This document shows, piece by piece, positions 6,963 to 61,446 of a stretch of DNA of 64,000 bases. Origin of the DNA: Marsupella aquatica. Taxonomy: Eukaryota > Plantae > Marchantiophyta. The position numbers and the translations under genes are program-made. The stretch spans positions 14,105,037 through 14,169,036 of the forward strand of contig OZ316891.1 in the NCBI GenBank assembly GCA_973895155.1. Reading direction: 5' to 3'. The notes below the pieces were generated by a model. The model ran no database searches and was not told the origin of the DNA. It was given only the letters and a program-made list of their open reading frames with translations. Each line of letters starts with the position of its first letter. The stretch's first letter is position 1.

Positions 6963-6964
6963 AT

Positions 6965-12604: not shown

Positions 12605-12614
12605 AAGGGGAAGA
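12605..12614 (+). promoter_or_regulatory. Polypurine tract
   Basis: AAGGGGAAGA immediately before the 3' LTR. Confidence 0.85.
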
Positions 12615-12615
12615 T

Positions 12616-13036
12616 TGTTGGGTATTTACTCTTACGTCTAGGTTAGGTATGACGTGGTTGGTACAACAACGTGGGTTGGTACAACTACGTGGTTAGGTAC
12701 AACTACGTGATTAGGTACAACTATGTGGTTAGGTACAACTACGTGATTAGGTACAACTATGTGGTTAGGTACAACTAAGTTGCACACTATATCATAAGAG
12801 GCATGTGTGTTTGGAGAGGTAGAACCAAGGCTCATTGTTATGGAGCCACTTGAGAGATAGAGAGAGCTTACACTGTGGAGACTCGGTATAGCCGACGGGC
12901 TTAGAGTTCAGTAAAGCTCTCTTGTGTGTTCCCGTGGACGTAGCCTCAAGGAGGTGAACCACGTATCTCTTGTGTCGACTATTGTGCGTTGGATGGTTCA
13001 TGGGCTTGCCGTTGCGATCGTCGTCTATGCTCAACA
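12616..13036 (+). repeat. 3' LTR of copia element 1
   Basis: 421-bp near-identical copy of 6542-6962. Confidence 0.96.
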
Positions 13037-33410: not shown

Positions 33411-33665
33411 GATTTATCGCTGCTGCTCAGTGGTCTGATTTGCAGGCAAGCTAAGCGCAAGCCTTGAACAACATCCCTTCCGATCGTGCACAACTATGAG
33501 GTGAATTGTGGGACCAAACTCTCTTTCCCTCTCCTGAAATCGCTTTCTTCCGTGAAACACTGAAACCCCAAATCACTCCATCCGAAATGGTGCAGCACCA
33601 TGCTCTCGATCCATACAGCTCAAGTTCAACATGGTAATTTTATTTCTTTTCCGAGTTATCACACG

Positions 33666-33853: not shown

Positions 33854-34699
33854 CCTCCTAAAGCCTTTGCACCTTGCCTGTCCATTGCAATCCAAGATGC
33901 CACGTCCCCCCGGGCGCGACCCTGTCCCTCGCAACCCTGTCCCTCGGGCTGCGAGGAGGAGGAGAGAAAGGGGAGGTAGAAGAGGGGAGGGGGGGGAGGG
34001 GGGGAGGGGGGAATTGGAGATAGAGGGGAAAAAAATACATTCCCACACTTGCCATCACCCATCTTGTGCACCCTCACGACCAACAGGATAACAGTTCCGT
34101 GGCAACAACCACCCAACCAAACAATGACACTTCTGAGACCACAACATGACTACACAAATGACCTGGTCGGATCTGCAACACTTCTGCAATTAGTTCATGG
34201 CCCTTGTCCTCCTGTCTCTAATTAGGGGCTCTTAAATTCAATGAGAGACACAGGTCCCTAGAAATAAATTTTAAGTGTTATATCAAAGTTGTGTGCTCCA
34301 TTGTGTGAGTCCTAGGTGACCATCTTTACGGACCCCCATGAGAGGTCTCTTGCAAATTCCCTGCCATGAGGTTGCGCCACATCACACACAACCAGCCACA
34401 AACAGGAATGATCCTACTTTTAACAATAACAAACGTGCACATTCCTGTTTGTGGCAAAGGCAACGTAATTTTTGGGGCGCCATGCCATAAATATTGAACG
34501 TAAAAAAAACCAAAATACAAAGGGAGATATATCATTTAGTAAAATAAAGTTACCATTTTGATGTTTGTCAAAGATATATCAATGTTTTATATCAAAATGC
34601 TTGTATTTTTTAATTGTTTGCAAGCTTGAAAAAAGTAACCAACCAATAGAAATGTACATAGTTAAAACCCATTTGGCTTCACATTGTAAAACTAAATAA

Positions 34700-37130
34700 T
34701 CAATCTCCTTAGTACTTGATAAAATCTGTTAATGTTTGATTCATTGGAAAACTCAAGATCAAGATTTAGAAACTCGTGACCTCTTTAGTATTGTCTTGAT
34801 AAAATCTCTCAATGTCACACTCATTGGAAAGTTAAAGTAAAATTAAAAACTCATCATCTCCTTAGTACTTGACAAAAATCTATCAATGTTAGGTTCATTG
34901 GAAAGCTAGAGAAATTTAGATACTCATGATCTCTCTAATTCTTGACGAATAATCTCAATGTCACACATTAGAAAGCTAGAGAGATTGAAAACCTCATGAT
35001 CTCTTTAGTATCGTGACAAAATCTGACATAAAATTTGTCAATGTCGGACTCAATGTTGGAAAGCTAAAAGAATTCATGAACTCATGATCAATATTTCTTT
35101 TACTCACACTCATTGGAAAGGCAAAGAAATTCAAAAACTCATTTGGAACTTGACAAAATTTGTCAATCTGAGGCTCATTGGAAACCTTTTTCAATTAAGA
35201 GCTATCACAATCTCATCACCGTCACAAACTTAGCCATTGAAAATTGATTTCTTTGATTATGTCACCATCCCTTGTCCACAATGCTTGCTTCCCGGCTTGA
35301 ATTGTTCGCATTCCTCTAGTTTTCAACTGAAGCTAGCTCACTCTGAACACAGGTTGACGCCAAATGCAGCCTCTATGTCAAAGAAACAATTGTTGGTTTC
35401 CCTCTCACACCATAGCTTTCTTAAATAACAAACTACAAATCCTTCATGTGAAGCGATGACTCGTTTGTTTTGTGTGTTCTTCCTACCGAATTAACAAGCG
35501 CTCTTTTGCCAATAGTTAAGTGTTGTTCTCCAGTCTGTCTTGTGGCGGTAATGCTCAATGTAACTCACAAACGATCAATCATGAATGATAGAAACACAAT
35601 TTCTCCAATGTGTAAGCAAAAACCGTCAAAAAACTCAATTCCTCCATGTTCAACCTTCCATTGATAAATCTCCTCTATATTTTGGGCGTTTTCTTTTGTA
35701 CGAGCACACACCAAAACCATCGGGAAACTCAACACCGTCAATTACCGCCTTGTTGAAAATTGATTTCACTTCATCAAACACACATTCCTTGGATGAACAT
35801 GGGGGTACACGGATTAATTGTTTATTATGATCATGTGCACAGAGCATGTGGGCTTATGGAGCAACCTGGAAGATGAAGCTCAGTTGGATGGGCTCAATAA
35901 GTAGCGTGGAAGATGAAGTCAATTGGATCTCCATATCAATGTTAATCGTGCTTCCCCTAAGTATGAATCTCTTCCACCTTCACGATCATTGAAGTAATTG
36001 TGGATCAACTTCAATCTTGGATCCTTTCCATGTTGTGTGTCATTATTGATCTCTAGCTTACGTGTTTCCAAATCATTCTCTAACTATAAACCCAACCCAA
36101 GCATATATCCCACTACATGAATGTCATTACCGGTTACTTTCCCTCCATTCCTTTCAACATTTTACATTACTTAACTTGGAACTTTACGTCTAGATGACCC
36201 ACAACCCATTTCCAATGACCCTCATCTATGGTTGAAACCCTTGGTGTGCTTAGAATGCTAGAAACATTTTGACAGAACTTTCCAATGAGCCTATTATTGT
36301 CACATATCATCAAGTATCAAAGGGATCACAATTTGCAGAATTTCTATACCCTCTTTTGCAAGTCGAGCTATGGCGTCCACAAAAACAATTTCAAATTTCC
36401 CTTGATCTCTTGATGAAATATTTGGTGCTTAGAATTTTTTTAACTATTTTTTAAAGAGCTTTCTAATGAGCCTTGCCATATTTTGTCAAGTATGAAAGAG
36501 CTCAAAAATCTCTAAATTGTTCCATTCTTCCTGAAAAGTCTAGCTATGTCGTCAACAAAAATCCCATTTTGAATTTTGTCCATCTCTAATAAAACCTTCC
36601 CTCTCTAGAATTCTTAGAAAAGTGTTTTAAAAGAGCTTTTCAATGACCCTAACATTTCTAGATTTCATCGACTACTAAAGATATAAGTTTTCAAATATCT
36701 CTAGCTTTCCAATGAGCCTGCATTGACAATTTTTGTCACTTACTAAGAAGACCATAAGTCTAAACCCAACAAGCCTAACATTGGCAAATTAGTCAAAACT
36801 AAGGAGATCATGAGTTTATGAATTTCTCTACATTTTCAATCTGATGCAACTTTTCATCATTTCCGGGCGGTTGGGCTCCGCAATCCCTCCACTTCCTCTA
36901 GTTGAAAGCCCGGTTGAAAGAGGCACAAACAAAAATTTAATCTTGTGTAAAAAATGGCTTTGACAAGGGCTTCAAGTTTTTTATTTCCAATTTGTCCCTT
37001 CATTGCTTATTCTATAGTAGCCGTTGACGGATTTTGTCAAGTACCAAGGAGATCATGATTTTATGAATTTCTCTAGCTTTCCAATGAGTGACATTGGGAG
37101 ACTTTATCAAGTACTAAAGAGATCATGAGT
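34700..37130. repeat. Two oppositely oriented arrays of a degenerate ~65-75-bp unit (34700-35190 and ~36270-37130); possible foldback-like element
   Basis: Left units CTCATTGGAAAGCTAGAGAAATT..CTCATGATCTC..TAGTACTTGACAAAA; right units TTTTGTCAAGTAC..GAGATCATGA..AATTTCTCTAGCTTTCCAATGAG (reverse complement). Confidence 0.6.
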
Positions 37131-38547
37131 TGGGTCACACATGGTGCCAAAGATTTTGGAAAGAATTTCCATGGGGTTTGTAATGACCACATAGCCATAG
37201 TGATAACGTGATTCAAATGATAGTGTGTAATAAACCAAATGGCTTAGACTAAGTAGCAACAATGTGTAACATGAGAGTGCACTCAATCTCGATCACTACA
37301 TCAATAAGATAATAGAATGAAGAAACTCCAAAAGGATCCATAGCATGAGAGAGTACTGCCAAGAATGAGGAAAAGAATGTTCTCCTGCCAACCTATATCC
37401 CCCAAGGGATCGAGACAAAGATATGTGGGCCAAAATAAGTGGATCTTATCCTAAATTAGTAAAGGGTGAACTAACCCTAACAAGGCCAAACTAACTATGA
37501 TTGAGAACCTGAGCCAATTCCAAGCACAATGGACTTCCACAGCCACAACTTGGCTGCAGTGACAACAACAACATAGTCGCATTGATAAATTTGAAATAGA
37601 CACTTGACATAATGATAAAGTCAATATGGGCTCAAAAGTTCACTTTGTTTCAACGTACTTCCTACCACAATGATTTCCTTACCTCAAAGATACCCTAGCA
37701 TCCATGATGCCTAAATACTTCAACAACTTCTTTGGCTTACCTTGACATCTTTTGTGCAATGCATGGGCATTAGGCTCGTCTACATTATAATTTGTCATCT
37801 AGGTATTTGCTTCACAACATACTCCATAGATTCTAATTTCTTGGGTGACGGCAAAGTTTGATATTTAGACTTTGCTTGTGAGTAAGCACAGACATGGGAG
37901 TTTGAGTACGGGAGCCTTACTATTTATATGCATAGGTGTTGCGGCTAGTCACAAATATTGGGATATGATCTAGACCAAACGAGACAACATTAACATGTGT
38001 GAACATTCATCCATAGACTTCGACACTAAAAGTACATGGTTCACCCCGTCTGGGCTTTGTCCACGGCCGTGAGAGAAATCCAATAATGCAAAGTGATTAC
38101 ACCGGCCATAGCCAACGCGCTAGAGCTCCTCCTCTCACTCTCTCACTCTCTATCCTCAAGATCAAGTGAACCTTCAAGTGTGAGCACAAGTTTGTGTTCC
38201 CCTTGGGTATACCCCCTCCCATGGTCTATAGGAACCTAGAACTCAAACTAGTGCTAGATCCTAGTTTATTGAAGTCTAGCTAGTAATGTGGAAGTATATA
38301 GGTTATACTAGAGGCATACCTAACAAACTCCCCATTGACTCTAGTGCTTAGCTAACTACCTGGTAACCGTGTTACTTCTAACTAGATCCGTATGAATCTC
38401 TTTGGGAAGTTCTAGAAGGTTAAACCAAGGAGTTTTTCCCTCTATACCTAAGAGCTAACTAGAACTAAGTCATAGCTGACAAAGTGTCAGATATAGTAGA
38501 CATACATAGAAATAAACTACCTATCTAGTATTAGCTCAGATCTTGTT

Positions 38548-38905
38548 TGTTAGATATTGCTCTAGTCTTGTGACTCATAAGCTAACCATAGTTAGTCTAA
38601 CTCGGGTTAGGACTTAGCTAATGTTAGCGGTAGTGCTGTTGTGTATTAAGCCAGGGCTGATGCCAGACCCTAGTGGAACTTAGGTTCATTGTTATAGAGC
38701 TAGTTGAGAGATAGGGAGAGCTTGTGCTGTGGGGTTTGTGCTGTGGATGCTTGGTATGGCCTGTCGGCCTAGAGTGCATTAAAGCTCTTGTGTGTTCTCG
38801 TGGATGTAGTCTCATGTGGAGGTGAACCACGTATCTCTCTGTGTCGACTATTGTGCATTGGATAGTTCATGGGCTTGTTGTTACAAATGTCGTCTATGCT
38901 CAACA
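38548..38905 (+). mobile_element. Solo LTR related to copia element 1
   Basis: TGTTAG...GCTCAACA with TSD TTGTT (38543-38547, 38906-38910). The 3' half (GGTGAACCACGTATCTCT..GTGTCGACTATTGTGC..GTCTATGCTCAACA) is close to LTR 6542-6962. Confidence 0.88.
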
Positions 38906-39040
38906 TTGTTAACCATATGTATCTCCTCATGAAATTCTAAACAGAAAACCTATGTTTCCCCCTTCTCTATGAGGGTTAACTAGAATTAGACCGTAGCCGG
39001 TACATATCGAATGGAAAATACACATACAAGAGAACTAACA

Positions 39041-41587
39041 CTAAGCATCCTTGTGCAAAAAATTAAAGCCTTGCACAATGCTCCGTGAAACTAGCCAAAG
39101 AGGAATGACTTTGGTTAACATATCAGCAGGATTGAGTTTTCCATCAATCTTTATTAACTCAATCTCTTTCTCAGCAACAGTTTGTCTGAGAAAATGATAC
39201 CTAATATCAATGTGCTTTACCTGGCCATGCGTTACTTGGTTTGCCGCAATATGTATAACACTATTGCTCTCACAATGAAAATCCACCTGCTCTTATAGAG
39301 TCCCCAAATCACGAGTCAACTTCCCCAACCAAATATATAGTCTCCTTTGCTGCCTCTGCTAGTGCTACATACTCAACTTCAATAGATGACTGAGATATGC
39401 ATTTTTGCTTCATGCTCGGCTCCATGGATCTCCAACTTACACATCCACCTGCTAACATGAAAGAACACCTTGTTGGACTCTTCTGTTGATCCAAATCACC
39501 ACCATAGTCTAAATCCACATATCCAACAAAAGACATCGCATTGTTTGAATGTGCATCAAACAACAAACCAACCTCAAATGGGTCATGTAAGTACCTTGGG
39601 TTAACCATGTACCTACTCACCACGCCCATAGCATGCGCTATCTGGTCTAGTACTGGAAGCAACAATGCATATGCCTCACATCCAAACACACGTAATCTCG
39701 TGTAATCTGCAGGTCTCTTGGGCCACATCTAAAATGGATAATATTGATAACTGCAAAATATAATGTTACCAGATAAGCTATTGTGTTGACAGCTTCAACC
39801 CAAAAGATCTTTGGTAGACCTGCTTGGCTTAACATACTTCCATATCTCTCCAATAGTGTCCTATTTAGCCTCTCAAAAATATCAATATGTTGAGGAGTAT
39901 ATGCATTGGTCAAATATCGGGTAATGCCTTCACGGTCTAAGTAGAGGTGAAACTTGTTAGAGATATATTCACCTTCATTGTCTGAACGAAGATATTTCAC
40001 CTTCTTTCCTACTTGTGTCTCAACCTGCATCTTCCACTTTTTGAAGATTGAGAAATTCTCAGACTTCTCATGGATAAATTGCACCTAGATCATCCTTGAA
40101 TAATCATCAATAAAAAACACGTAATACTTCATTCTTGACATTGAGAGCTCAAATAATTCTCACACATCATAATGAATGTAATCCAAAATATCTTTAGAGG
40201 TATGACTGGCTCCTAAGAAACTTACACGATGCTACTTACCAAGGACACGGTGTTGATAAAACCCCAGCTTGCACAATTTTGCACCTGGCAAGAGATTATG
40301 TTTTACACATTCAGCCCTTTCTCATTCATGTGACCCAATCGTGCATGTCACAATTGTGTCTGATCCAACTCTGATGAAACTACATTGGCACTACCAAGAA
40401 TCATGATGCCTACCAAGATATATAGATTACCCTGCTTCCTATCTTCCATCACCGCTAGAGGACCATGTATGACTCTCAAAACTCCACTTGTTGTACTCCA
40501 TTCACAACCAAATGTGTCCAATGCTCCCAAAGAGATCAAATTTTGCTTCAAATCTCAAATGTGATGAACATTCATCAACGTACGGACAACTACATCAAAC
40601 ATTTGAATGCACACTATACCTATGTCAATGACTTAACAAGGTTGATTATTCCCTATCATGAGGTTCCCTGATTTTGGCTCATAGGTGCAAAAGGTCTTCC
40701 TATCATGACACATATGAAAGGAATGTAGAATTCAAAACCCACTTCGGTCTCCCACCTTGAGAACCGGTACATAAGGCAAAACCAACATCATCATCAGAAG
40801 GAATAAAACTCGTCTGACCTTGAATGTCACCACCACTCTTGCAATTCCTCTTAATGTACGTGGCCCTTCTTATCACATTTTCAACACTCAACACTCTTTG
40901 AGTCACGTAACTTTGATCTAGCCTTGGTTTTACCAAAAGAACCTATAAAATGCTCTCGTGATCTGTCCCTAGTAATTACTAGTGCTGATCCAGATGAAGA
41001 AGAAGAACCATTGTGCATCTTCTTTTGCATTTTGTTTGACAGCAAAGTGTTCACTATCTCATCATAGGTCAACGTTGTCTTGCCATACAAGATTGTCTGG
41101 AGCAGGTTTTCATATGAGCGTGACAAGGAAGTAAGCAAATCAAGTGCTTTCTTCTCATCCTCCACCTTCTCATTGAGACTCATCGATTCTGCGATGATTA
41201 AATTAAAATCATCAATACATTTGTGCATAGTTTTACCTTCAGCCATCTTGAAATTCATCAACTTCAAGCTTATGTATAGCCGATTTGTCAACAACGTCTT
41301 CTCATACATCAGCTTCAGTTGATCCCACAACTTTGTAATTGTGTCCTCCGTCATAACCTAAAATAAAACTTCAGGTGGCAAGTGGAACCTAATCAAACTG
41401 AGAGCACGATTGCCAATGTCTTCTCACTCCTCATCAATCATGGAGGATGGCTTTGTGCTAAATGTTGAATCCAAGCCTTGGGAAAGAAGAACGTCTTTTA
41501 TTTGTACTTTCCATAATGTGAAGTTATTGCACGTGGGGAATTTCTCCACTTCATGTACTTTGCACTAGTCACCTTCCGGGAAGCCAT
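39041..41587 (-). pseudogene. Degenerate copia gag-pol; most of RT deleted
   Basis: Gag (LLTSLSRSYENL), PR-like KWVLNS, IN (RSDNEGEY, ERLNRTLLE), then YTRLRVFGCEAYAL joined almost directly to IAHAMGVVSRYM and RH (KHIDIRYHFLR); many frameshifts. Confidence 0.88.
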
Positions 41588-42368
41588 GACAATGTCCCCT
41601 ACTCTTATATGCAATGTATTCAATCTAAGCTACCAAGGTGTTTGTAAGGCTGCTAAACCGTATTGGACCCTCCAAGGGGTATAGCGACCGAGATAGCAAA
41701 CAGGCAAACAGCAAATACTTTTCCTGTTTGCCTTATGCTATTACCAGGAAAAAACATCTTGTACTAGGGGGAAGAACACACAATCAGGAGTTTAGAATTG
41801 TTTAAGTTGGAGTTAGTCCATTGCGGTGAGGGAGGATACCATGTCATGAATCGCTGAACCACATAATAATTGAACCTCATATCCCAACACAAACAAGGGG
41901 GAGCATACATAAAAATGTCAAGGAATGCGCACAAAAATGGTAGGTCCCACCACAATCGACAACAAAATATATAAAAATAATACAAAATGAATGCATCCCA
42001 AAACTTTATGGTATTATATGGTCCAAAATAAAAGCGAACAACGTGTTGACTAGCGTCTGGCGCTATCTTATCGGTATTTCAGGAAACAAATAGTTGGCGT
42101 TGAGAACATCAAGCACAACATGATGATATTTAACGGTGTAGCCTAAATGACAAAATTATCAGCGCCTGGCGCTAACAAAACATGACGCGACATAAATAAC
42201 ACTTTTCCGTTGACATATGATAAAATCAATATAACCATTTGGACCAATAATACAACCTACATCATCATGATTCATGCTATAAACCATGAGCATTTTGCCT
42301 CTCTAATATGAGCCGAACCTCTCCAACAGTGAGAATTGGTTGGCTGGTCAATGTAGATTCCTCAACGT

Positions 42369-44619
42369 CTAGTTTGAAAACGGTAAGGAAAATCCAATAC
42401 AAATGTTTGCAAGGCATATATGGATGTTTCTGAGAATGTTGCCGGTAGAAATCCTCACACGAGCAAGTGGGAAAATGCAAATTTGAACAAAGTAACAATT
42501 TGGCGTCCGCATATTTTCGTGCGTTTGCACCTTAAACTGCTTTCCCCATGCATTCCCAATCGCAACATCCCACTCTCCCTGAATGGACATCGTCTCTTTT
42601 TTTGCAGACGCAATTCTGTTCATGTGACCCTGGGTAAGATTTGACTGAGGAACCGTATTCCTCCCATTCCGGCTTCGGAGACGAACATTGGGTTCGACAA
42701 GATTCACATGTTCTAGAAAGATATTGACATTGATTCGAAGATCAAAATCTGACGGGGGTGTAGTTGTACGTTCATTTCCGCGCACTAGGGAGATTCCGTT
42801 GTCAAGAAGATATTGCAGCTCGTCTTCCAAAACATTTGTCCCTTTCAAAATGGGAAGAACATCTGGGAAAGGGGGCAGGTTCAATACACCTCGACGAGGG
42901 CGGCTTCTGTAACATGTATTGTTTGGGCAAAACCAAATCATTTCGGTTATGGGTTCCCCCCTAAAAATGCGTTGTCCTTTGACAACAACACCGATAACAC
43001 CATGTGGTGAGGGAAATCCAACTTTTTTCACGCGATTGCGACACTCATCTCTTTCAGAATTACGGGAACTATTCAGCGCGATAGTTATGATCGTAAATAT
43101 GCGCACTAAAAGTAACCCAGTCTTTTGTGAGTCGTTTCATCACATCAAAACTTACCCAAGAACCTTCGAGACTTCCACCAGGTTGCATTTGTCTCAAAAG
43201 ATCGACGCCTGATCCATGGCCGATCGAAGTCATCTTGAATATGTGAGGACGGTCTTCTTGAGGCCCTTGACCTGGTAGGAGGTACCTTTGGAGGAAAGGC
43301 ATGTTGATATTTCTTTGATACCGAACAAGAAAATCTAGTTCACCTTGACCTTTCTGGTCCTGTCTAACACTACGAAAGAGGGACGCAAACTTCCGGGGTG
43401 TGGAAACTACCATGAGCGACTCAAATATCTCGGTTTCTTCAATATCTTGAATATCTTCCACACTTTCACACAAGGACTTTACAAAAGATCCTGTCGCCAC
43501 ATTTTTTACACCAGCAGGAGTGAAAATTGGATTTCCTTCCAATTTCTTTTTGATAACCTCCTCAACAATCTTCTCTGCGCTCCGAGAAAACACCTTTCTT
43601 GAAGGATGGTTGTGCATCCCCATATGAATTGCCAAGCGGGACATGTGAGTACAGGTTTCTGAGTCAACTAGAACTTGGGGGTACATGTAAAATAACCTTG
43701 CTAGACAAGATTGGACACAAAATGGAACTTGATCACAAAATTGGCAAACAACTCCACCTTTATCAATGAAGGAGCCAACACGATGTTGCCCGCCAAGTTT
43801 AGGGGTTCCACCCCAGGCCTTATGGTTCCTCTTTTTCTTCCGTCGAAAATAGTCGCAAGTATTATTCCTACACTCAATGGAACCAGTGCACGTTACTTTA
43901 CCAAATTCCCAATATTTCTTGGGATGAACATTAGCTGATGTAGGAAATATTATGGTCCAGATGTAGCAATCCTTCGACCGGTCCATGTCGCGTAGACGTG
44001 ACCCCTTTGAAAGAGCTCCCGCAGGAGGCAACTCGAATACAATATTTCCATTGTATTTCTTTGGCAAACAGCCGACTTGTTCATGGCAGTAGTCCCCAGC
44101 CGCGATGAACCTCGAGATTTCACTGGAACCAGTTGACTTGAGAATGGTATCCATTGCACTTCTCCGATACACAATGAAATTTTTGGTAAAAACTGCTCTA
44201 ACCTCCTGTTTAACAGGGGTAACCTCCTGTTTAACAACTGTGTGAGGGGGTTTATCACTAGACTTAGGCAAACCAGAAGGTCCATCATCGTCGCTATCTG
44301 AAAGCAAGACAACATCAACAAAGGGTTTGGATGAAGATGGGAGATCGGATGCGACTGGTTTTCGAATGACAATAGAATACCGAATTCCTGCATTCAGGTG
44401 CCAAAAATGAATCCCGTCATCAACATCAAAAGAAGCAGTGAAATTAGAGGCTTCATCTCCGTTTCCCTCCTCCAAAATGTCCTCAATGTCATTCAAATCC
44501 AAACCAAAGCGCCCACAGAGATAATTCTCACTAACTTGCTTGTATACGTCATTGGTCGACAATGGAATGGATACAAGGTCACCCGTAGATGGACGCGTCA
44601 GAACGATTGACCTCGACAT
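42369..44619 (-). pseudogene. MULE-type transposase with GCM/WRKY-like Cys/His DNA-binding domain; catalytic core apparently deleted
   Basis: ATG 44619. CTGSIECRNNTC..CQFC..C..SCLARLFY..RLAIHMGMHNHP, then SWVSFDVMKRLTKDWVTFSAHIYD (first-Asp strand region of a MULE RNase H fold). The frame ends at 43069 and a C-terminal segment (WFCPNN..PDVLPILKGTNV) follows in another frame. Confidence 0.62.
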
Positions 44620-45563
44620 TGTAAGATCATCCAACCCAAAAACACTCAGTTCACAATAATGAATGACGTCTTCGAATGCACACAATGATATTCATAGTCA
44701 ATAATCCGTTTGTCAGAGCCGTTAGAATATGACAGAATCACTACCGGTCGAAACCACATCTGACACAATAAATGTTTTTTGTCATTATGTCAACGACATT
44801 TACACCAATGAGCCTAAGATGTCCGTTTACGAAGACCATAATCATGTTTATTAAATCATCTTAATTGAGTAGCGTCGGGCGCTACTCAAACATCATCACT
44901 CCAACATGGACCCAAAATGGTTCAATATATGTTTAGCGCCAGGCGCTACTCAAACCCACACCCTAAATTGTGGTATAAAACTAGAATATTTTATTCGGGG
45001 TTTCAGAATAAATCCTAATGTTTGTAGCTATTTTCCAAATATTATCTAAAATTTTACCAAAATGTTCCCATTTAATATTAGCGCTGGGCGCTAATCTGAA
45101 ACGGTAATCATGACATTCATTTAAGGCAAAATATTCAAAATTTGTATTCATTTTGTTTTTTATTTTATACTTCAGGGTCAATGTTGGCCTAACTTAGGGA
45201 AATTTTAGGGTTTGAATATTGATCGTTTTGGGTAGCGCCAGGCGCTACCATTGACCAATATCAGATTTGACCTAGGAATATAGATTAAAATAACCGAACT
45301 CTTCTTTAACGGTCATATTCAACGGTAACGTTAGGTCGCGTAACGTTGAAGATATGCCAACGATATTCTAAACCACTAATCCAGAATTGACAAGTGGCGC
45401 TCAGGAGAATGTCGTAAATAGATATCAATGTAGCGAGTGGATAGTTTAGAGATGATACTCTCCCCACCTCCCTTGTCCGCTGTATTTAGGCTCCGTTTTG
45501 GAGGTTCTTCGTGCAAGAATTCTCTAGAAGAAGTACGGTACGAATGAGGTACTCAACACGATC

Positions 45564-48500
45564 ATGAAGCACTTCGTGTGTGGGCAAAACATGGACCCTC
45601 TCCCCACCACCTCGCATGGGTATAGTGCTAACGGGCAGAGAGAGCAGATCCATTCCCAAACATCCGAGTGCTCGTTTTCTGGATCTGTTTACAGTCGTCG
45701 TGTGACACGGTCTACAGCATCCCAAGATCCTGAAACAATCACGGTAGTCACATTTCTGAAGAGCAGGAGAGCGAAGATGGACGATCTCGACACATACGCT
45801 GTGGAAGATCGAGCAGAACTGTCACTAACGATGTCCGACGTTATCTCCAAGCACGTTATGGTGTTTGGCAAGGATTTTTGAGGGCACGACAAAGACCCCC
45901 CAAGGATTCCAATGTGCCGCTTGGTTCACATGGAAGTTGTCCGCACCTTACAGAAGGGAAGTCCTTCAATTGAAAAGTTGAAGGACTCTTTTTGTAGCAC
46001 AGGATACAACTCAAAAATCGGAATGTTGTTCTATGTCCAGCCGGGAGATTCGAATGGGAATGTCCAGACGTGTACTCCAGAAATTCGAGCGACCTGGGAC
46101 CCTGTGTGGGTGGCCGAGAACGAGAAGTTTGAAGTTGAATGTGCGGCCGATCTAGACTTCATGGTGTTACAAGATAAGATGTTTTACATTTTTGACGGTA
46201 ACCATTGACTTTACGCATGGTCGATCGTTACAAAAGAAAATCCGGAAGATAGCAAGTATCACCCGCGTGTGCAATGTACTATCTTCAAGGGTGAAAAGGG
46301 ATCTTTGATTGAAATTGAGGCGGCTATGCATACTGTGAACCAGTAAGTCTCTCTTTGAATTTCATCTATCCTTATCTTTTATAGTGTAGTTTTTACTAGC
46401 GCCTGGCGCTATTGACTGACAAATTCTTCTGTAGACTTGGACAGGCCGTGGTGGAACCTTCCTGGATACTTGATGCAGACCGAATTAAGAGGATTTTGTC
46501 CAACGATCTAGAATACTACAAATCAATCATGGATGGGGCAAACTTCAAGAAGTTTGGGCAGGTGATGCAAAAGACTCGAAAAGGATCGTGGTATTCCAAG
46601 AAAATGCCTCAAGAAGCACTTATGTATATCTTATGCGAGAATAAGATTAAATCCTATTCTCGACAATTCAAGATGGACATGGAGTCGGCTACCGCTCAGG
46701 GAAATCCTTGGTCTCAGGAAGAGACATCCAAACGACATGCGGTCATGATGAAAGAAGCAACGAAGGATTGGGCGATCAAGGTCTCAAAGATCACTCCCTT
46801 GTTGAGTCCTGAGTTTGAAGACTTCATGACAACCTGTGCTGAGATGTATCCAATGACAGAGGTGAACAAACGTGAGAAGAAACCGGATGCGGTTGTCTGT
46901 ACCATGGATCGTGCCAAGTTATTTACAGCAGTCTCCGCCCTCGACCCCAAATTGAGGAGCACTTTGTTAGTAGCGCATTGCACGCCAGAGCTTAGGAAGC
47001 AGTTCTTTCATCCGCAAAGCGTTAGCGATGACCCTGTGAAGCAGTGGTGCCACACTTGGCAAACTTGGAATAGCGTGGAGGGAATTGCCATTGGTATGCT
47101 GCAGACTGCCCTCCAGCAAATCAGTGAAATAATTCCTTCCAATCGATTGGAGGAATGGAAGTGTGAGTCTTATGATTCACTCGTTGAAATAGTGTGCAAT
47201 GATCTCAAAAAATTTGGGGATGCAGTGAAAGGTAAGTTTTTCAATACGATGTGGATGTCCAAGTACACGGACAAGGAAGACTACACACTCAAGAATCAAA
47301 AGCGAGCGAAATGATATGTCTATCGTTTCTTCATGCACATGGAGATTGTGAAGCCTGACTATTTTTGGGCTTACCCAGCTGCTTTCCAAAATTGGGTCAT
47401 CTGCACAGATGGAGACATTTTGGCCGAACTATATTCGATGTATCCCGTTGAGGGTATACTTCCACCGAGAAAATTGTCTGAGTGGGAGAGAATTCACTGC
47501 CCTTGGTACCTTGACACCGACAGATGGGATTCTCCTTTTGACGACACTGAGAAGGATGCTTTCCATAAACTGTCTAAATCCCAAGTTCTGAGATAATTTG
47601 TCTCCGACATGAAGCAAGGAATTGAGGGGGACGTCAACTCGTTGACGACTGAGTTGCAAAAAAAATGCAAAACCACAGTGGTTCATGTTGATCAAAGCCG
47701 TAAACCAAGAGCCAAAGCCAAGGCGGATGCCCCTGTGGCAAGTGCTAGTGCCAAGTCTGGGAAAAAACGTAAGCTACACCTCCTTCTTCCGACTTCCTTC
47801 TTTGTTAGCACCTGGCGCTATCATGTGTCGTAAGTTTAATGTGTCTTATTTCCCAAAATTAATGTGGGTGTTTAGTCAGCACCTGGCGCTAACACTCTTT
47901 CTGTGATTGACACCATTTTTTGGTAGGTGGTCGAAAATCTGATGCCGCCACGGATGACACAAAAGTCGATGCAACACCAGAAGTTTCTGAGGCCAACACT
48001 GGTGCCAATCCAGACCCCATCACCCCCGTTGAGAAGGGGAAGGTTATAGTTCCTGTGGATGCTACAAGCACAAAGAAGAAGAAGAAGAAAAGGACCATCG
48101 ATGTCTGGGAATCGTCGCGAGATAATGCTTCTTGGGCCGGTATCCAACGGGATGTGGGGACTTTCAAGACTAAACTCGGAAGACACTGTATGGTCAAATC
48201 AAGCTTGGCATAATTCATTGATAGTGCATTTAGTAAGGAAGAGAAGCCAGATTGGGTCTCAGACGCTGAGAAGTGGGGTAAGGATTTGATCAAGTCGAGG
48301 TGTAGAGATAAAGGAATCATTCCAGGTGGGAAGGAACGATCATTTGGGGTGAATGCGGGTTTCATCTATCTCCCAACTGGTTTGAAACCCACAATTGTTG
48401 ACCGTCGGGTCCTGAAATGGAATATCACAGATCACACAGCAGCCGAATCATTCTTTCGGGCGATGGACCCTTTCCTTTCCGATGACGGCATGCTCGCTAT

Positions 48501-49738
48501 CTTATACTCGGATGACCACGACCAGATTTCCCAGGTCATTTCTGCATGTCAGCAATCCAAGAAGTTCATGTGCATCAATACGCACAATGTTTTCATGTCT
48601 GTCCCAATGTACAGATCCAAGACAGATGTCCAGGTAAATGTTCTCTATACTAGCGCCCGACGCTACTCTTTCTTTCTTAGTAGGTCTTCTCTCATGAATA
48701 ACAGATTTTTAAAATCCAGTTGGTTTGTCAACTTTTGCAGGTCTTCACTCTTAGACTGGATATATTTTGTCGGGTTTCTTTTAAAGGAAAGGTCCCAAAG
48801 GATCCAAGATTCAAGCCGTTATCTAGCGTTGAAGATCCTTCAATCTCAAACCTTATTGGGCTACAATCTTTGAAGGAAGATCATTGTCCTGAACTCCATT
48901 TTACTGGGAATTCTCGACTACCGGTTGGTTTTATGCAAACTGTCCTTGAACTCTTTACGATACCTAAGGATATTGTAATTGATTGGACCGTCGGCTCAGG
49001 TTGTACATTCATTGCTGGGGATTACTCAGGCTGTTTTGTCATCGGGTTAGAAAATTGTCGGGAGTTTGTTGAGACCGCTTCGAGGATTTTTTTGGATCTC
49101 ATTTCTCCCAAACCTTTGGAGACACAACCTCCCCCTTCTCAAATAACCGGACGAAAAAAGAAAGATAGACTTAGATCTGTCCTCAATTTTGATTCGGACG
49201 AAGATGATGGGACGCCAGAAGATGATGGGACGCCAGAAGATGTCAATGACAACGGGAAAGAGGAAACCCGACATGATGGGTCAACGGAGGACAGCGAAGA
49301 GTCTTCCGAGTAATTTTCGTCTCTCGTAAGCTCCTTTATCCTTTCAATTGTTGGCTAACCATCAATTCCACCGGTTCTATCTGTTAAGTACTTACTTCCT
49401 CTTTCTCTTCCGATTCTCTTTTGAACAGATCAGAATGGAACCAAAGAAAACGGTTTCAACTCCGAAGGAAAGTGGCTCGAAATGTAATCATCACTCTCGA
49501 GAAGCCGTTTGTGTTGCCATCATACGCTAAGAACATCGCGAGGAAGGTAGAGAAATTTAGAACGCTCTGCTGGGAAACAAAAGGACTTAGGCTTCTTAGG
49601 GGAGTAGACAGGAAGTTCATGAGGAACCCCTACGTAGATGATGTTTCTAGAAGCAAGTATATTGATGATGAGGCAGAGTCGACCGACAGATCTCATAGCT
49701 CCCAGAATGAGAGCTCAAAATCTGACACTGAAGGGTAG
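45564..49738 (+). pseudogene. Transposon-borne ParB/Srx-like + beta-class N6A/N4C DNA-methyltransferase-like fusion gene (5 exons, ~1232 aa, 5 in-frame premature stops)
   Basis: GT-AG exons 45564-46342, 46435-47768, 47927-48633, 48741-49309, 49429-49738 total 3699 nt in one frame. Stops at 45879, 46206, 47312, 47594, 48211. Motifs FYIFDGNH*LYAW (ParB/Srx DGxHR), VNAGFIYLPTG (degenerate motif IV), FLSDDGMLAI, LPVGFMQTVLELFTIPKDIVIDWTVGSGCTFIAGDYSGCFVIGLEN (motifs X-I-II). First ATG and last exon are less certain. Confidence 0.72.
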
Positions 49739-52700
49739 CAATTTTCTCCTCTATCAGGTCAAACTTCCTCCCAACTGTACGAGTATGCCCTTGGTTTTTG
49801 TTAGCGCCGGGCGCTATTGAATTTATTAAATATGAATTGAGTTTGATGGAGGTTGCCCCTTCCATTCAATGGTTAATGTGGTCTTTAGTAACGTCCTTTG
49901 TGTGGGTTCCTCTCCTTGTTTAACTAGCGCCCGACGCTCCCCAAAAAACACGTTTGAAGTTTCCGTTTGATATTTGTCGTTTCTGCCATAGTGTCATTTG
50001 GCTTTCAGTCGGCGACTGGTACCGTCAAGAGGACCAATAACAGGAAATCCAAGCCCCTTATAAACATACTATTGTTTCTTTCAAAGTCCATTGCTCTCGT
50101 TCTTCTCCTTCTCAATTCCATGGAAGGCCAGTGTATCGACGGCCCACGAGAGCATATGTCAACTTCCGATTAGATGGTTTCTGCCATGAGCCAGATCGTC
50201 AGGACGCTGGGATTGATGATGACTGTCACTCTTCGAGCTAGGGCATTGTACGAGGAATCACCCACCGGGAGTATTAGCGCCTGGCGCTAGTTACAATTGC
50301 ACTGGAAACTTTAGTGTTCCTATGTAGCAATATTTGTACATCAAGGACAATATGTTTCACTTAAATAAAAAAGCTCGGGTTTCTTTTCTTTCAATTTCCC
50401 GTTAGAAGTTATGACTCAGATACCTTGGTTAAGTCCTACTTCTGTGCTTTGATATTGAACTTAGACTATTAGTAATCTTTGGTTTCTACTTGGATCTCAG
50501 CCTGAACATCAATCCTACGTTCTCGTGATTTTCTCCACAAAGCACTAGAAGCGGCCGGCTCTAGTATTCGGCATGTTTGGGCGATTAATGTTTCATTATT
50601 TTGGGTTCGCACGCCCGGCGCTAGTATTCGTTATGATGCGTTTGTAATTGTTTTGCCTGTAGACTCCCAGCGCTAGTATTCGGCATCGCATAATTATCAG
50701 TATTTTAGGAACGGGTTTTTTTAATTTTGCCACAATACCAGGAGAAATGTGCTCCCAAAACAGGAAATTTTGCTGTTACCAATTCCTGTTATAGTTTTCT
50801 GTTTGCTGTTTACTGCCTTTTGTAAACACCTCCCTCCAAGCAACCTTACTCAAAAAATCTCCAAAAAATGAAAGTGATGCAAATCAAAAACTGATTTGAC
50901 CTTCTTGTAGCCTGCAAGATAACCTTTCCATAACACCAAACAACTATGCAAACAAACACTCAAGCCAAGAGTTATCAACCACTGACCGCAAGGGGGTCAA
51001 AATATCATTTTGGACCCCTTCAAGGAATCTTTTTAATAAAATCTTCCACACACCTTTGTTCCTAAACCTATTTTTCAGACCCCTCCCTAACTCCCCCACA
51101 CCCCTGCAACAAATCTCAAGAAATGAAACACGTTTGCCTTGTCGAATCCCTAATTTACCGTTGAATTTTAACATTTTGGAGAATTGGGAATATAGTGAAT
51201 AAAAGTACAGGGGGCAAAATGCCCTATGGCACTTGCCACAAACAGGACAACGCCTGTTTGCTCTACACCCCATCACCCCAAGTGCCCTACCACCCTTCCC
51301 ATACTCGGCTGAACGCCCTTCCCATGCCCTGCCATGCAGCCAAAATCAAACCCACTTTGATTGCCCGTATCTCGGCCATCCATTCATTTGATCTCTAATT
51401 TATATGGTTGGAACGAGCGCAATGAGATGTTTTCAACAAGCTATGGACAATCCAAGATCATGACTTTCAGAAATCAACCTAAATTTGTACAATTGTACGT
51501 CCGTCGCTTTGAGTTCCCGACTACATGGCTGCCTGAGCTTAACAACCAACTTCAAAATCAAGTTAGTGGTTGCACACACCACCAAAGTATTTGCTATTTG
51601 TTGTAAATGGATCCTCGTCCCGTTTGTAACTCCCTGGATCAAATCAATGACAAAATGAACAATCAAAACCCGGATTGTGCTCACATTGAAGAAAGTCGTT
51701 GTTGAACACAAAGAGAATTCTTCCCACCTTCAAAATGTGCGCAATCTTTGGCCTACACAACACAGGAATAGACCAAAGCCTATGCTTCTCCGCCCTAGGA
51801 GAACATTCATACTCACATCCCGCACCAAATGCCACAAATTGGTAATGATGAGCCCCAAGCGCTTCTCAATCTCAGTCCCCAAGCTCTTATACCAATTGTT
51901 GGGATATGATCTAGATAGAATGAGATAACATTAACATGTGTGAACATTCATCCATAGACTCCGACATTGAAAGTGCGTGGTTCATCCCGTCTCGGCTTCG
52001 TCCACGGCCGTGAGAGAAATCCAGTAATGCAAAGGGATTACACCCGCCGTAGGCAACACGCTAGAGCTCCTCCTCTCACTCTCTATCCTCAAGAGTGAAC
52101 CTTCAAGTGTGAGCACAAGTTTGTGTTCCCCTTGGGTATACCCCCTCCCGTGGTCTATGGAGACCTAGAACTCAAACTGGTGCTATCCTGGTCTACTGAA
52201 GTCTAGCTAGTACTGTGGAAGTATATAGGTTATACTAGAGGCATAATCTAACAACAAAAAACCTGATGCTCACTTTAGCCAAGATACACAATGTGTAACC
52301 CTCTAAATCTGATGAAAGTTGCAACTTTTTATACCCAAAGTGAGACCACTTAATTATACAAAAGAAATATACCAGTTGACCTTGAACAATGTTTGCAAAT
52401 GGTGCATCCAAGTTAGTTTTCAAACATTGTGGTCCGTTTGGGCTACGCTTTTGAGTCACTACACAATCCTTTTCCACATGTTTTTTTTGCGATTAACTAA
52501 AATAAGGAAAACATACTACAACATTGACTAGTCATTAAAGTAAGAACATAAGAATTCTCAAATACTGCCCTAAACACAATTCTACCATCTTGGTCATTAT
52601 GGTGCCCTTTCCACCATTTCTAATGATTACCAAAAGGGGCACCCATAAATTTCCCATGTGACCTGAATTTGTACTTCAGCTGCAAAGTGTAGCCTCTTGA

Positions 52701-56725: not shown

Positions 56726-59700
56726 ATGGGACTGAAAGACAAAGAATGGATCAAGGTGGTCACGCTCACAACGACTGTGGCCGCTGCGGGTGTTTCCCTG
56801 GCAGCGTGGAAGGTCAGTTTGGTTGGTGTATCTATGAATGAGTAAATGCTTGCTTTGGTCTTGCCATTGCACTTTTCTTTGCTCGGTTCGCATGCGGCGG
56901 ATGGAATGGGGATGATTTGGTTTGATTTGATTTGATGAGAGGCTGAAATTTCCAAGGGTGGACGCCTAGTATGTGATGATTATTATTGCATTTCAGACCC
57001 ACTCTCTGACGAATCCAAAGTGGCTTGATTGACGCTCTACTTGGTGGGAATCGATTGGATCTCTTCAATTGAGTGCGTGATTGTCATTTGGTCCGTTTTC
57101 GACCGAAGATTTGCAATGTTTGGAGAAGTTAATCGTTCTGGGTTTGTTGATATGCCAGATCTACGTGAAGCAGTGGCTGAAGGGAGGCCATAGAGACCTA
57201 CTCTATTCCTTAGCATATGCCGGTTCTCGTCGTTCATTGCCGGCTCGTTTCGATCATTCCCTGAGCGCTATCCACACAGAAGGTTCAAAGTATCCAAAGG
57301 TGCTAAGAACGCAAAGTTGCCCTATTTCCTCCTCAGATCTAATGTCTGGGTGTTGTGTCAATCGTATGTGAGTTCAAAGCAAAGTCATTGGTCCTATTTT
57401 GCTCTTTCAGTCATTCCCAGCCACCAATCCAAAGTCATCGAGTGCAACGGAGCTCTCACTGTAGAGCAAGGTGAACTTTTCAACGTCGTATATTACTTGA
57501 TTTCAATTCCATTTACCCACAACAAATTCGTTCCGTTTCTCGACAGGTTTACTCTGTAGGAGGACATGGGACTTCCTCAGAGTATATGGAGGTGTGGGTT
57601 CTTGATCCTGCCCTGCGTGGATGGACAGAAGTTCTTCCTGCTGCTAATGCTGATACCAAGCAAGCCGTATTTGCCAACAGGAGATGTCATGCAGCAGCCG
57701 GTACTGAAGATCTGGCCGACATTTATAATTCTTCATAGTACATTACAAGTTTTTACTTTAGAACTGCAGATTCTCAAGTTTAGAAGGTAATTGATCATAA
57801 ATTTGAAATGAGGTAGAAAGTCCATGACATCTAATGATGGGTATATTTTTTACTTCTATGTTAAAATTTTGTGAAATAACGAAGATTAGCTATACTGCTC
57901 GGATCGCAAATTCTGACGATTTCTCGAACTCCCGTGGTACTTTTCTCTTAGGTATTGGAAGCGACATATACGTGATCGGAGGCATTACAAATAAAACTGT
58001 GGTAATATACAGTTCTGCATTCGTATTGTTGCCAGTCGGTCAAGTTGTTCATTCTGGCTCTATACGAGAGAGTGCTATAAGGTGTCAGTTCTTACTATGT
58101 CACTCGCACGTGAAGTTAGTTTCAATGACATACGTATCCTTCTGAGTTTTCAGCAACAAAAGCCTGCCTTAGGTGGAATCGAGGGGTTTTCACCGAATCT
58201 GAAAATCATATGATCTTTGAAGTTGTATGTTCAAAATGGTTTTGTTGGCCTGGCATCTTGAAATGAATCTTCGCTGCAAGTCCTTATATTTCAGTTCACT
58301 TGAGGTTTTCAGAAGACTTAATGATCGATGTGCATCTTCCACTAGGGTGATGTATTAAAATTCGATACGGAGAAACAAAGGTGGAGCACTCCGTCTTTCA
58401 CAGGGTATCTTCCCCAACCTCGGTCAGGGCACTCTGCCACAGTTGTTGGCAAGAAAGTTGTAGGTGACAAACTTCATATCCTTGAAAGCTCACTAGTGTG
58501 CAGATTGCCTAGGGTGGATTTTCAGCTGAATAGAACAATGGAATCCATGCCTAAGCTGAGTTGCTCTGGATTAGTAATCGTGCAGTAAGTCGTGACCTCA
58601 TACTGTTTGTTCACGTGAACCAGTACGTGTTTGGTGGGCAAGGAGAAGACTCAGCTCTAAATGATGTCAACATCCTTGACACAGACAAGGGATCATGGTG
58701 AGTGTTCTTCAAGTGCTTTAGAATGCGTCATTTGTATTGTGTGCGATTTCTATTCTTTGTTCCATTAGTTGTGGATGGTTTCTCTGCACGCCGTTTATGT
58801 GCAAATCTCTACTGGAGATAGTCTACAATTAGAAACTGCTGGGCGAGAGTAGTGTGATAGCTTATCCACGCTATTCAGTGGAAAGAATAGTTTCCTTGAA
58901 GCAGTCCCTTCGCATAGAGTAGTGCAGTAGGAGATGGTCGACGGCCAATCCTTTGACTTTGAAACAGGGCTAAAGTTATCAAAACTGAACTGTTTTGCGC
59001 ACTGTTTCCTTTCTCAGGACAACTCCCGCTGTGTTGGGATTTCCCCCAGCACCCCGTTTTACTCACTCTGCTGTACTTCTTGAAGATGGCGAACGTATTT
59101 TGATATATGGGGGTCATACAAACACTGCTGAAAGTGATATATGGTTTCTTGAAGTAATTTTCTGCCTTTCCTTTGGACAGTGTTGCATGAATTTTTAAAG
59201 AACACCTACGGATTTCATACCCGCCTGATGGTACGGGTTGTGGATCATGAGTTCCCCCCGTGTTTTTTTTTTGTTTTTTGTTTTGTTTTTGAGGGGGGGG
59301 GGGCATGGATAGAAGCGTTGGTAGTCGCTCGACAGTACCAACCAGTTTAAAATCTACTTAATTTTCTAGGTTAGAATTATCCGTTGTTGGAAGGCTCACT
59401 TCTAATGTGTCCTCGCAATGATTTTGTGAATTATTGAGCTGATCATTGCTTAGTCTGTGCGGGGAAACAGCTCTACAAGCTGAGATTAGATATTGTTTAC
59501 AGTTATTGCAGGTTCTCCCGTCCAATCATAATCTCACACTAGTGAATATCAATTGCAGATTGCCACGACCTATGTCAAGAACCAACGGGAGCTGTTAGGA
59601 AAAGAGGTTGTCGCATGGAGCAAAGGTTCAATCGGTAAGAGTCCACAGCCGGTTGTCATCTGCGGCCCCTCAGGTGTAGGTAAAGGCACACTTATAGCAA

Positions 59701-61446
59701 AACTCATGAAAGAATACCCAAATCAGTTTGGATTTTCTGTAAGCCATACCACTCGCAAACCAAGAAATTTGGAACAGGACGGTGTGCACTATCATTTCAC
59801 CCAACGTGCCGCTATGGAAAAGGATGTTAGGGAGGGTAAGTTTCTGGAGTCAGCAGATGTCCATGGAAACCTCTATGGAACAAGTATTGCAGCAGTACAG
59901 GCTGTGGCTGATGCGGGAAAGGTAACAAGCCTTTTGCGTTGTTCGTTTTTTCAAATAAAAACAGAAAGACATTGAAGAGTAAATTCTCTTAGTTTTTCAA
60001 TATCCTTTGGTTAACGTTCCTTGACGTTTTAGTGCTCTTAATTAATATAGATCCTAACCTCCTTTGCATAGACATGGGATGATTGTTCTTGTTATCTTCT
60101 GTGCTGTAGTCAAGTAATGTAAATAGAGTGTAGTCAGTGTCTTTTTGTGAATATCTTTCCTTTTGATGGCCCTAATTGAAACTGCTCCCCTTTCCTTGCA
60201 GAGATGTATTCTTGATATTGATGTACAAGGGGCTGAGCTCGTGAAAAAGAGTACATTGGATGCATTATTTATCTTCATAAGTCCACCAACTTTTCAAGAA
60301 CTTGAAGCAAGGCTACGCGGAAGGTGGGTACAATTGTGACACTCAAATATTTGTATTGTTTGTTGTAAATGAAATCGTTTTTGAGCAATCACTAATTTTT
60401 CGTCTCATATGCAGAGGCACTGAAAACGAAGAACAGGTCCAAAAGAGGCTACAAAATGCAAAAGCAGAGATGGATCGGAGCAGTGATGCCACTCTCTTCG
60501 ACCACTTATTGGTCAATGATAAGATCGATGATACTTACGATCAGCTGAAGGCAAGAGACCCTCCTGTTTATCGTTCTTTTGAGGACCAAATGTTGGAATT
60601 TTGCTGTGTGGTATTGATCCTCTGCTTTTTCCTGTTGCAGAAAATACTGGGCTTCGGAACTGAAGCTTTGGAAAATGGAGTATACGGACTCGGTATGACT
60701 TCCTGCCGCAGTTTTATCTGTATTGCAGTAAGAAAAAGTGTCTCTTTCAACAGAGTACATGAAAGATCAATTGATTTAAATGCCCGAGAGGGAGGTTATC
60801 AAGTTAAGTTGAGCTTAGAGGAGCGACCAAATATTTGAAACTAATTGGGATTCATACTAAGTACTATTAGAATCTGTTATGGCTTGTCTATTTTTCAGAA
60901 GAAATGATACCAGAAGCAAGATCAGGCCATTCTTCAACAATTTTAGAATCCAAGGTCGTTGTCTATGGCGGTCTCACGAGTGCAGGAACGCCAAGCAACG
61001 ATTTGTAATGCCTCCACCTTCTTCCTTATTTAAACTTTGCGCCGCCGCTACACCTACTGAAGTGTTGGTCCGTTACGTTTTAATTATCACCTATGACGGT
61101 TGTGCTAATGTGGACTGATCAGGCAATGTGCATGTAAGTACTTGATACGTCGGCTAACTCCTAACTTCACTGATGGAGGGTCGATCTTGCAACTTGCAGA
61201 TTGGCCCTTGATACTTCAAGACTTACCAGTGGTGCTCCTACGACAACCAGAGGATTGTTTTGGTCACGTCCTGAGCCAAAGTTTGACCTTTGGAAATACT
61301 TGAACCTCTCACCGTCCCTTTCTCCAATGTACAAGCACAGAGCGGTTCCGCTAAGTTCAACAGAAATGCTTTTGACTGGAGGATATGATGACGAGCAAGC
61401 TCTGAATGATAGCATAGTCTTGAAGTTAAGCAACGAATCGTACTGA
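56726..61446 (+). CDS. Guanylate kinase with Kelch repeats (plant cytosolic-type GK), 13 exons, ~593 aa
   Basis: Exons 56726-56812, 57159-57299, 57547-57700, 57952-58001, 58346-58459, 58624-58697, 59018-59153, 59559-59921, 60202-60323, 60415-60550, 60641-60692, 60899-61004, 61200-61446 total 1782 nt. GK motifs [36 protein letters not shown]; Kelch motifs PRSGHSA, YVFGG, PRFTHSA. The first two exons are less certain. Confidence 0.9.

Follow-up and report, generated by a model that had tools for sequence, protein, structure and literature searches.

A dispersed palindrome, probably a selected binding site, in a defective two-gene Mutator-like element of the liverwort Marsupella aquatica

Why does a 15-bp palindrome occur thirteen times in the non-coding DNA of one transposable element, and nowhere else in the 64-kb stretch that holds it? 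The question is raised by a defective Mutator-like element (MULE) of the liverwort Marsupella aquatica, in a stretch of 64,000 nucleotides that we call the window (contig OZ316891.1 of assembly GCA_973895155.1, positions 14,105,037 to 14,169,036 of the forward strand; all positions below count from its first letter). The element holds a transposase pseudogene and, head-to-head with it, an accessory pseudogene with candidate ParB-like and methyltransferase-like parts. Our conclusion is that the thirteen copies form a genuine site, confined to this element, that selection has probably kept for protein binding, and that the MULE itself is a dead copy with two genes.

We searched the window for the palindrome, TAGCGCCNGGCGCTA, with shuffled sequence as background and a symmetric weight matrix as a second scan. 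Thirteen copies were found with 0-2 mismatches (five perfect, six with one and two with two), while the shuffles gave a mean of 0.51 expected matches and a maximum of 2. Under the matrix these copies reach 21-28 bits, whereas nothing outside the element exceeds 4.1 bits. The half-site in exact form (GGCGCTA/TAGCGCC) is present 19 times in the element and 0 times in the remaining 54.8 kb of the window. All thirteen coordinates given in a preliminary description of this DNA proved exact, and its statement that the palindrome is missing from exons and from the rest of the window is borne out by both scans.

42051..42065: palindrome copy 1, downstream of the transposase gene
42160..42174: palindrome copy 2, left subterminal region
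44870..44884: palindrome copy 3, divergent promoter
44934..44948: palindrome copy 4, divergent promoter
45079..45093: palindrome copy 5, divergent promoter, with a C>T at 45085 private to the window copy of the element
45233..45247: palindrome copy 6, divergent promoter
46397..46411: palindrome copy 7, intron 1 of the accessory gene
47806..47820: palindrome copy 8, intron 2 of the accessory gene
47877..47891: palindrome copy 9, intron 2 of the accessory gene
48651..48665: palindrome copy 10, intron 3 of the accessory gene
49802..49816: palindrome copy 11, downstream of the accessory gene
49925..49939: palindrome copy 12, downstream of the accessory gene
50275..50289: palindrome copy 13, downstream of the accessory gene
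50549..50687, + strand: triplet of degenerate half-sites with spacings of 60 and 52 bp, repeat family D3

Every one of the 13 copies lies outside the mapped exons, and non-coding DNA makes up 34% of the element (exons 66%; P = 7.5e-7). The outermost full palindromes stand 374 and 542 bp inside the element ends, and a TAGCG word lies 5 bp from the left end. Allowing three mismatches adds two matches, at 50549 and 50609. The half-sites described earlier near the right end are indeed present as a triplet, in degenerate form, one of them reading CTCTAG in place of CGCTAG. No tandem array containing the full palindrome was found in the window. The element and its genes are laid out as follows.

41668..41676, + strand: left copy of the 9-bp target-site duplication, CCCTCCAAG, at the empty-site joint 41667 to 50832 seen in a contig of run X2
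41677..50831: defective Mutator-like element, 9,155 bp, inside the leader of a copia retrotransposon
42295..44619, - strand: transposase pseudogene, with a GCM/WRKY-fold domain, the start of a catalytic domain, an internal deletion at about 43078 and a frameshifted SWIM-type end
45528..49738, + strand: accessory pseudogene, about 1,244 codons in five predicted exons, head-to-head with the transposase gene, start codon not fixed
45528-46342, 46435-47768, 47927-48633, 48741-49309 and 49429-49738, + strand: accessory exons
46343-46434, 47769-47926, 48634-48740 and 49310-49428: accessory introns 1-4
50832..50840, + strand: right copy of the target-site duplication, CCCTCCAAG

The borders follow from the two copies of CCCTCCAAG and from the empty site, in which 41667 is joined directly to 50832; together they place the element at 41677-50831 with a 9-bp target duplication, which fits the range of 8-11 bp given for MULEs (PMC6446971). 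The termini share degenerate short similarity and no long terminal inverted repeats, and such repeats are also absent from non-TIR MULEs, those without terminal inverted repeats (PMC6446971).

Next we examined whether the site ends with the 15 bp. Two bases outside the arm (position -2), a purine is found in 25 of 26 half-sites (p = 8e-7, uncorrected and noticed after inspecting 20 positions); in a control, half-sites of exact 15-mer matches in virus contigs, it is found in 82 of 170. T is preferred at -4 (17/26) and at -5 (15/26). The two arms satisfy the -2 preference independently, exact pairing there occurring in 8 of 13 sites with 6.1 expected, and arms within one site are no more complementary than arms taken from different sites. 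The site is longer than 15 bp: it extends over about 19-25 bp and reads T-T-k-R-N-TAGCGCC-N-GGCGCTA-N-Y-m-A-A. Exact extension of the palindrome, reported earlier for some copies, holds for the 5-bp extension at 44870, the sole long one, and is otherwise at chance level (positions -1 to -8, smallest p 0.08).

A symmetric, degenerate flank preference to which each arm conforms on its own fits the selected site of a dimeric protein. Exact pairing would be expected of a hairpin, or extended flank identity of a unit that had been copied, and neither origin is favoured. From these patterns we judge it highly probable that the palindrome is under selection. The preliminary description had proposed a selected dimeric-protein site laid out like a VANC target, and the symmetric flanks and element-specific placement agree with it; a parS-like role would depend on the ParB assignment, which draws on motif order and matches below threshold.

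Core and arms of the site have fared differently. Deviations from the consensus are mostly C>T or G>A, as had been noticed (7 of 10 deviations, over 182 positions). The CpGs of the arms are intact in 24 of 26 cases; the central CCNGG is intact in 8 of 13 copies, with CCWGG present in 7 of 13, and its first C is the position changed most (4 of the 10 deviations) and also varies among family copies (44875, 45084). The core is altered in 4 of 5 sites in which the middle base is C or G, making CCG, versus 1 of 8 others (p = 0.03, post hoc); mutation has removed the CCG cytosine at 3 of the 5 sites, compared with 2 of 52 cytosines in arm CpGs (Fisher p = 0.003, post hoc). This contrast reads as host methylation and deamination hitting the sites, the resulting changes apparently persisting in the core but being weeded out of the arms. 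That the core decays while the arms persist argues against CCNGG as the key determinant.

We then turned to other copies of the element. It is covered by thousands of contigs at 85-99% likeness in all four runs (from two studies), which makes it a member of a multi-copy family. Its CpG observed/expected ratio is 0.74-0.92 over 42001-50000 compared with 0.35-0.41 in the flanking copia, which may reflect family youth or low methylation.

Family copies were compared over 44840-45270 in contigs of the four runs (40 of 50 rows). Among the rows shown, 39 positions vary, 3 of them in motifs where 5.4 are expected (P = 0.19); two of these three restore the consensus, and the third, a C/T at position 6, is of a kind that the site tolerates. 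In a subfamily diverged by 11-12%, two long contigs show 34 visible differences, of which one falls in a motif and restores the consensus; as motifs occupy 50 of 388 positions, P is 0.055 for at most one difference in a motif and 0.011 for none departing from the consensus. Contig depth is 1.2-1.7x higher in motif bins in all four runs and ranks first or second of 29 shifts in three, although the peaks may stem from contigs of other motif sites. By eye, some contigs match only at a motif and then continue at 65% likeness or less, and a joint in runs X2 and X4 shows a motif-bearing unit duplicated. Collectively, the evidence for conservation across family copies is consistent but modest.

A more distant comparison comes from L001, the sole locus returned by a metagenome scan (166 candidate stretches). 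Its ParB-like exon is 44% identical to that of the window element, and some 300 bp upstream of that gene lies an exact half-site with a purine at -2, for which the chance probability is 0.013-0.023. We also observed that this half-site sits in a zero-spacer near-palindrome (120-138 of L001), which may be the L001 family's own variant of the site. In virus contigs the exact 15-mer was found in 85 stretches, with two in one contig among the 80 matches listed, and no phage array was seen there.

What could bind such a site? The first candidate is the product of the accessory gene. The reading frame of the window copy has five premature stops and zero frameshifts, intron 4 keeps the frame open into exon 5, and intron 1 has the same position in four protein relatives and in L001. 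Exon 1 gives sub-threshold matches to phrog_1033 (E 0.054) and to DGQHR TIGR03187 (E 0.06), and it carries a DGNHR-type motif that is invariant in 4 of 4 relatives and whose Arg is a stop in the window copy. A ParB/Srx nucleotide-binding domain would be marked by a GxxR motif. A profile comparison picks two ParB boxes in the right order, though without significance. From these traits we think that the exon 1 domain is probably ParB-like.

Exons 3-4 hold an amino-methyltransferase-like domain. Exon 4 resembles beta-class amino-methylases (PF01555, E 1e-5, 26.0 bits against a cut-off of 26.7; DpnA, E 0.003), the S-adenosylmethionine-binding motifs X-I-II lying at the C-terminal end. The catalytic motif IV, of the D/N/S-P-P-Y type, was not recognised: the region reads FIYLPTG where three phage enzymes have IADIPY, in a profile alignment that is not confident, in a decayed copy, and no relative covers exon 3. 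The methylase-like domain may be catalytically altered or dead. A Pfam scan of all accessory exons returned no family besides PF01555, and PDB sequence searches gave no ParB match. No full-length relatives were found among proteins of 477-2000 aa, none of exon 3, and none of the protein in prokaryote genomes, virus contigs or phages.

The second candidate is the transposase. It has 287 relatives at E <=0.001, and of ten looked up by name seven come from the liverworts Calypogeia and Riccia, which suggests a bryophyte host. A model built from 91 sequences (predicted local distance difference test, pLDDT, 84) matches GCM 1ODH best (Foldseek E 7e-3, probability 0.97; VIA Z 6.3, root-mean-square deviation 5.1, 137 aligned) and WRKY next (Z 5.9), the GCM Z being middling; these matches bear out the GCM-like domain suggested beforehand. 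PDB sequence searches gave no GCM match, and virus contigs no match to the transposase.

Relatives that span the catalytic domain lose their match at 43075, and the SWIM-type end follows directly in another frame, which indicates that the window copy has lost the remainder of its DDE core; for this reason we file the element as a defective derivative. A complete DDE domain is not present in this copy, and the relatives P0008, P0017 and P0023 run on past the deletion point with more acidic and CxxH-type words, which we take to be the DDE-domain signature. The C-terminal CSC...PCKHL aligns to P0036, SWIM-type according to UniRef, with no Pfam match; such a SWIM zinc finger is frequent in MULE transposases, though not found in all. 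The window copy is predicted to make neither transposase nor accessory protein, and it is a dead, two-gene defective MULE derivative rather than an autonomous member. A WRKY-GCM1-fold domain has been associated with MULE transposases (PMC1702500), and in the window gene it precedes the catalytic domain.

The element ends carry a motif of their own, AACAG(C/G)AA, with 6 of its 11 window matches in the two 115-bp termini. Its clusters are candidate transposase sites of an element that lacks long terminal repeats.

41699..41728, both strands: left terminal cluster of AACAG(C/G)AA
50759..50811, both strands: right terminal cluster of AACAG(C/G)AA

We consider it likely that the binder is encoded by the element itself. 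As to which protein, we incline slightly towards the ParB-like accessory product. The termini carry a different motif, while the full palindromes lie inside the element and enter the accessory introns, which favours the accessory protein over the transposase; the preference also follows from the fact that ParB-family proteins bind palindromes as dimers. We hypothesize that the ParB-like, methylase-like protein of the element would load as a dimer at the palindromes, as sites of the element's own, and then spread along the element, so that cognate copies would be kept marked or unsilenced. The 13 sites of the dead window copy could then be served in trans. Sliding dependent on cytidine triphosphate (CTP), as in KorB, and an effect on host silencing are weaker suggestions still than the choice of binder, and the methylase-like domain probably does not act on the CCNGG core.

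Several observations weigh against this hypothesis. The ParB identity is not significant (best E 0.054; hhalign probability <=1.1%), the model of the ParB domain is too poor to search with (pLDDT 41), and exon 2 matches no family and no relative, so that a helix-turn-helix is not shown there. Any word inserted into the element would be expected to be missing from exons, so this placement is no proof of function. Four copies do sit in introns 1-3, at the positions described earlier, yet the predicted fourth intron (49310-49428) holds none, leaving 3 of 4 predicted introns with a palindrome. The count over all 39 variable positions and the ambiguity of the depth peaks belong here too. L001 has no full palindrome, its promoter aligns no better than shuffles, and the motif was not found in the 61 bases of its intron 1 that are covered. 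Finally, the transposase has a sequence-specific GCM/WRKY fold of its own, and MULE transposases can activate their own copies (10.64898/2026.08.24.746577).

The last point leads to the rival that survives best, in which the transposase binds the palindromes through its GCM/WRKY-fold domain and uses them as internal enhancers of transposition or for self-activation. Two-fold sites with a spacer are typically bound by helix-turn-helix dimers rather than by GCM or WRKY domains. In favour of this rival, a good model (pLDDT 84) matches the GCM fold first, the degenerate half-sites are grouped at 155-280 bp from the right end, and the TAGCG word stands close to the left one. A precedent is AtMu1c, whose transposase binds and activates cognate copies, and does so at terminal repeats (10.64898/2026.08.24.746577). 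The window element carries AACAG(C/G)AA at its termini, however, and its full palindromes sit in introns of the other gene. Weighing both sides, we find the transposase an unlikely binder of the palindrome.

Less probable again is recruitment of a host factor, such as a transcription factor or the demethylation machinery, that the element would exploit. Four palindromes in the divergent promoter and a CpG-rich word are in keeping with it, and binding by an element protein is putative. Against it, the 54.8 kb outside the element contain zero full sites or exact half-sites, including the host genes for guanylate kinase and a SURF1-family protein. One specific host candidate, an E2F site, was rejected: the E2F word is TTTSSCGC, and the purine at -2 in the flank profile does not fit it.

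We regard it as just as improbable that the palindrome is a non-functional by-product, either the remnant of tiny inverted-repeat elements or a hairpin that local duplication and gene conversion have multiplied. The non-coding placement would arise even if purifying selection acted on nothing but the exons, mean flank likeness is slightly over chance (0.326 vs 0.297, p = 0.001), and the duplication of a motif-bearing unit has been observed. The best flank pair (0.44), however, equals the median chance maximum, flank preference is symmetric yet not complementary, and the arm CpGs are kept while the core decays. We rejected a miniature inverted-repeat remnant, as the copies have no target duplications and no shared flanks, and no flank pair exceeds chance maxima. 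We also rejected a hairpin or RNA role: no Rfam family matches, flank complementarity is at chance, no tandem array holds the motif, and sites are also intergenic. One intron 2 palindrome overlaps a CTAAC branch-point-like word, and the other palindromes do not.

The weakest alternative, proposed in the preliminary description, makes the CCNGG core the target of an N4-cytosine methylase of the element, and despite the PF01555 match, the beta-class motif order and the CCWGG of 7 of 13 copies we hold it to be very improbable, given a core intact in 8 of 13 only with its first C most mutable, FIYLPTG in place of the phage IADIPY and no recognisable catalytic motif in the window copy, and 7-bp arms that a 5-bp target would not require.

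How does the window element compare with known systems? VANDAL21 of Arabidopsis, with its VANC21 protein, likewise belongs to the Mutator-like elements; its terminal repeats are weak, it has an accessory gene, its family-specific motif lies in introns, intergenic and terminal non-coding DNA, and motif units have been gained by duplication (Hosaka et al. 2017, PMC5735166). VANC motifs differ in being 9-bp, non-palindromic and arranged in same-orientation tandem arrays, and in that their binding by VANC, with removal of methylation in trans, has been shown (PMC5735166). The window site is a dispersed 15-25-bp palindrome, and its binding is putative. The window accessory protein, probably ParB-like and methylase-like, appears to be of another kind than VANC in a comparison by Pfam families. 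We infer that the window system works like VANDAL/VANC, yet it is not a member. As a separate observation, the right-end triplet (50560-50687) contains TAGTATTCG, which agrees with the VANC21 word YAGTATTAY in 7 of 9 letters, probably by chance.

ParB-like accessory genes are also described from algal transposons. Sola1-1_Ec32 of Ectocarpus has, as here, a gene of about 1,100-1,250 aa combining a ParB-like part with an N4-cytosine/N6-adenine methyltransferase, on the strand opposite the transposase; according to the proposal made there, the protein would bind the sequence of its own element and modify it (PMC12477816). It belongs to a brown alga and to the Sola superfamily, its main text names no palindromic site, and its likeness to the window protein is one of description (PMC12477816). 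PAG3 of red-algal Plavaka elements is another ParB-like accessory protein of a DNA transposon and adjoins inverted-repeat units proposed as its binding sites (Petroll et al., 10.1101/2025.02.11.637652). In that system, however, PAG3 is fused to a 2-oxoglutarate (2OG) oxygenase, a second gene, PAG2, encodes the methylase, and tandem arrays of the repeats lie beside the gene, in contrast to single sites across promoter, introns and both ends (10.1101/2025.02.11.637652). That ParB accessory genes may bind their own transposon has thus already been proposed in algae. The literature searched, from which subscription journals are mostly absent, contained no bryophyte ParB-methylase MULE or site of this kind.

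Among bacterial systems, KorB is a ParB-family dimer that loads at the odd-length palindrome OB of plasmid RK2 and slides to regulate promoters at distances of up to 1.5 kb (PMC11790492). Like the window palindrome, OB (TTTAGCGGCTAAA) has TAGC/GCTA as its outer arms and flanks rich in T, although its arms are 1 bp apart versus 7 bp here and the likeness may be chance; KorB is moreover described as a bacterial repressor without a methylase domain (PMC11790492). The palindromic site in cis of ParB/parS systems is matched here in form only, cognate binding being presumed. ParB-linked methylases have been reported in phages, chlorophytes and chytrids (Iyer et al. 2016, PMC4738411). The Marchantia N4-methylcytosine (4mC) enzymes were considered as counterparts of the accessory gene and rejected, since those are host genes with a TSPPY motif (10.1101/2021.02.12.428880).

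The farthest-reaching reading would be that a land-plant Mutator family took over a whole prokaryote-type ParB/parS module: CTP-gated clamp loading at intronic and intergenic palindromes, spreading over 9 kb in chromatin, a methyltransferase fold that writes 4mC or N6-methyladenine (6mA) or blocks host 5-methylcytosine (5mC), and anti-silencing independent of VANC. In this full form we treat it as speculative and rather doubtful. If true, it would explain how a few point sites control a whole transposon; plant MULEs would then have evolved anti-silencing convergently a second time, and a sliding clamp would be at work in the chromatin of a eukaryote. With its precise candidate site, described by a symmetric profile of 25 bp, and its candidate protein, the element brings the question to a land-plant lineage, which makes the earlier self-binding proposal testable.

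The rest of the window holds further elements and two host genes.

6542-13036: younger copia element, long terminal repeats (LTRs) 99% alike over 421 bp
30783-33413, - strand: host gene, SURF1 family
34686-37131: separate element with inverted degenerate repeats of about 75 bp at both ends; the TAGCGCC word is absent from it
37952-52254: host copia retrotransposon of the MULE, decayed, LTRs 88% alike (pair 37952-38326 / 51893-52254), gag and integrase identified
59532-60835, + strand: host gene, guanylate kinase

In the host copia, the sequence 40 bp left of the insertion (41637-41660) starts with 8 letters that it shares with the start of the reverse complement of the MULE's right end (50808-50831), by chance or through target preference. 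The same copia also carries a very-high-copy 368-bp insert at about 38538-38905, which is related to the LTR of another copia.

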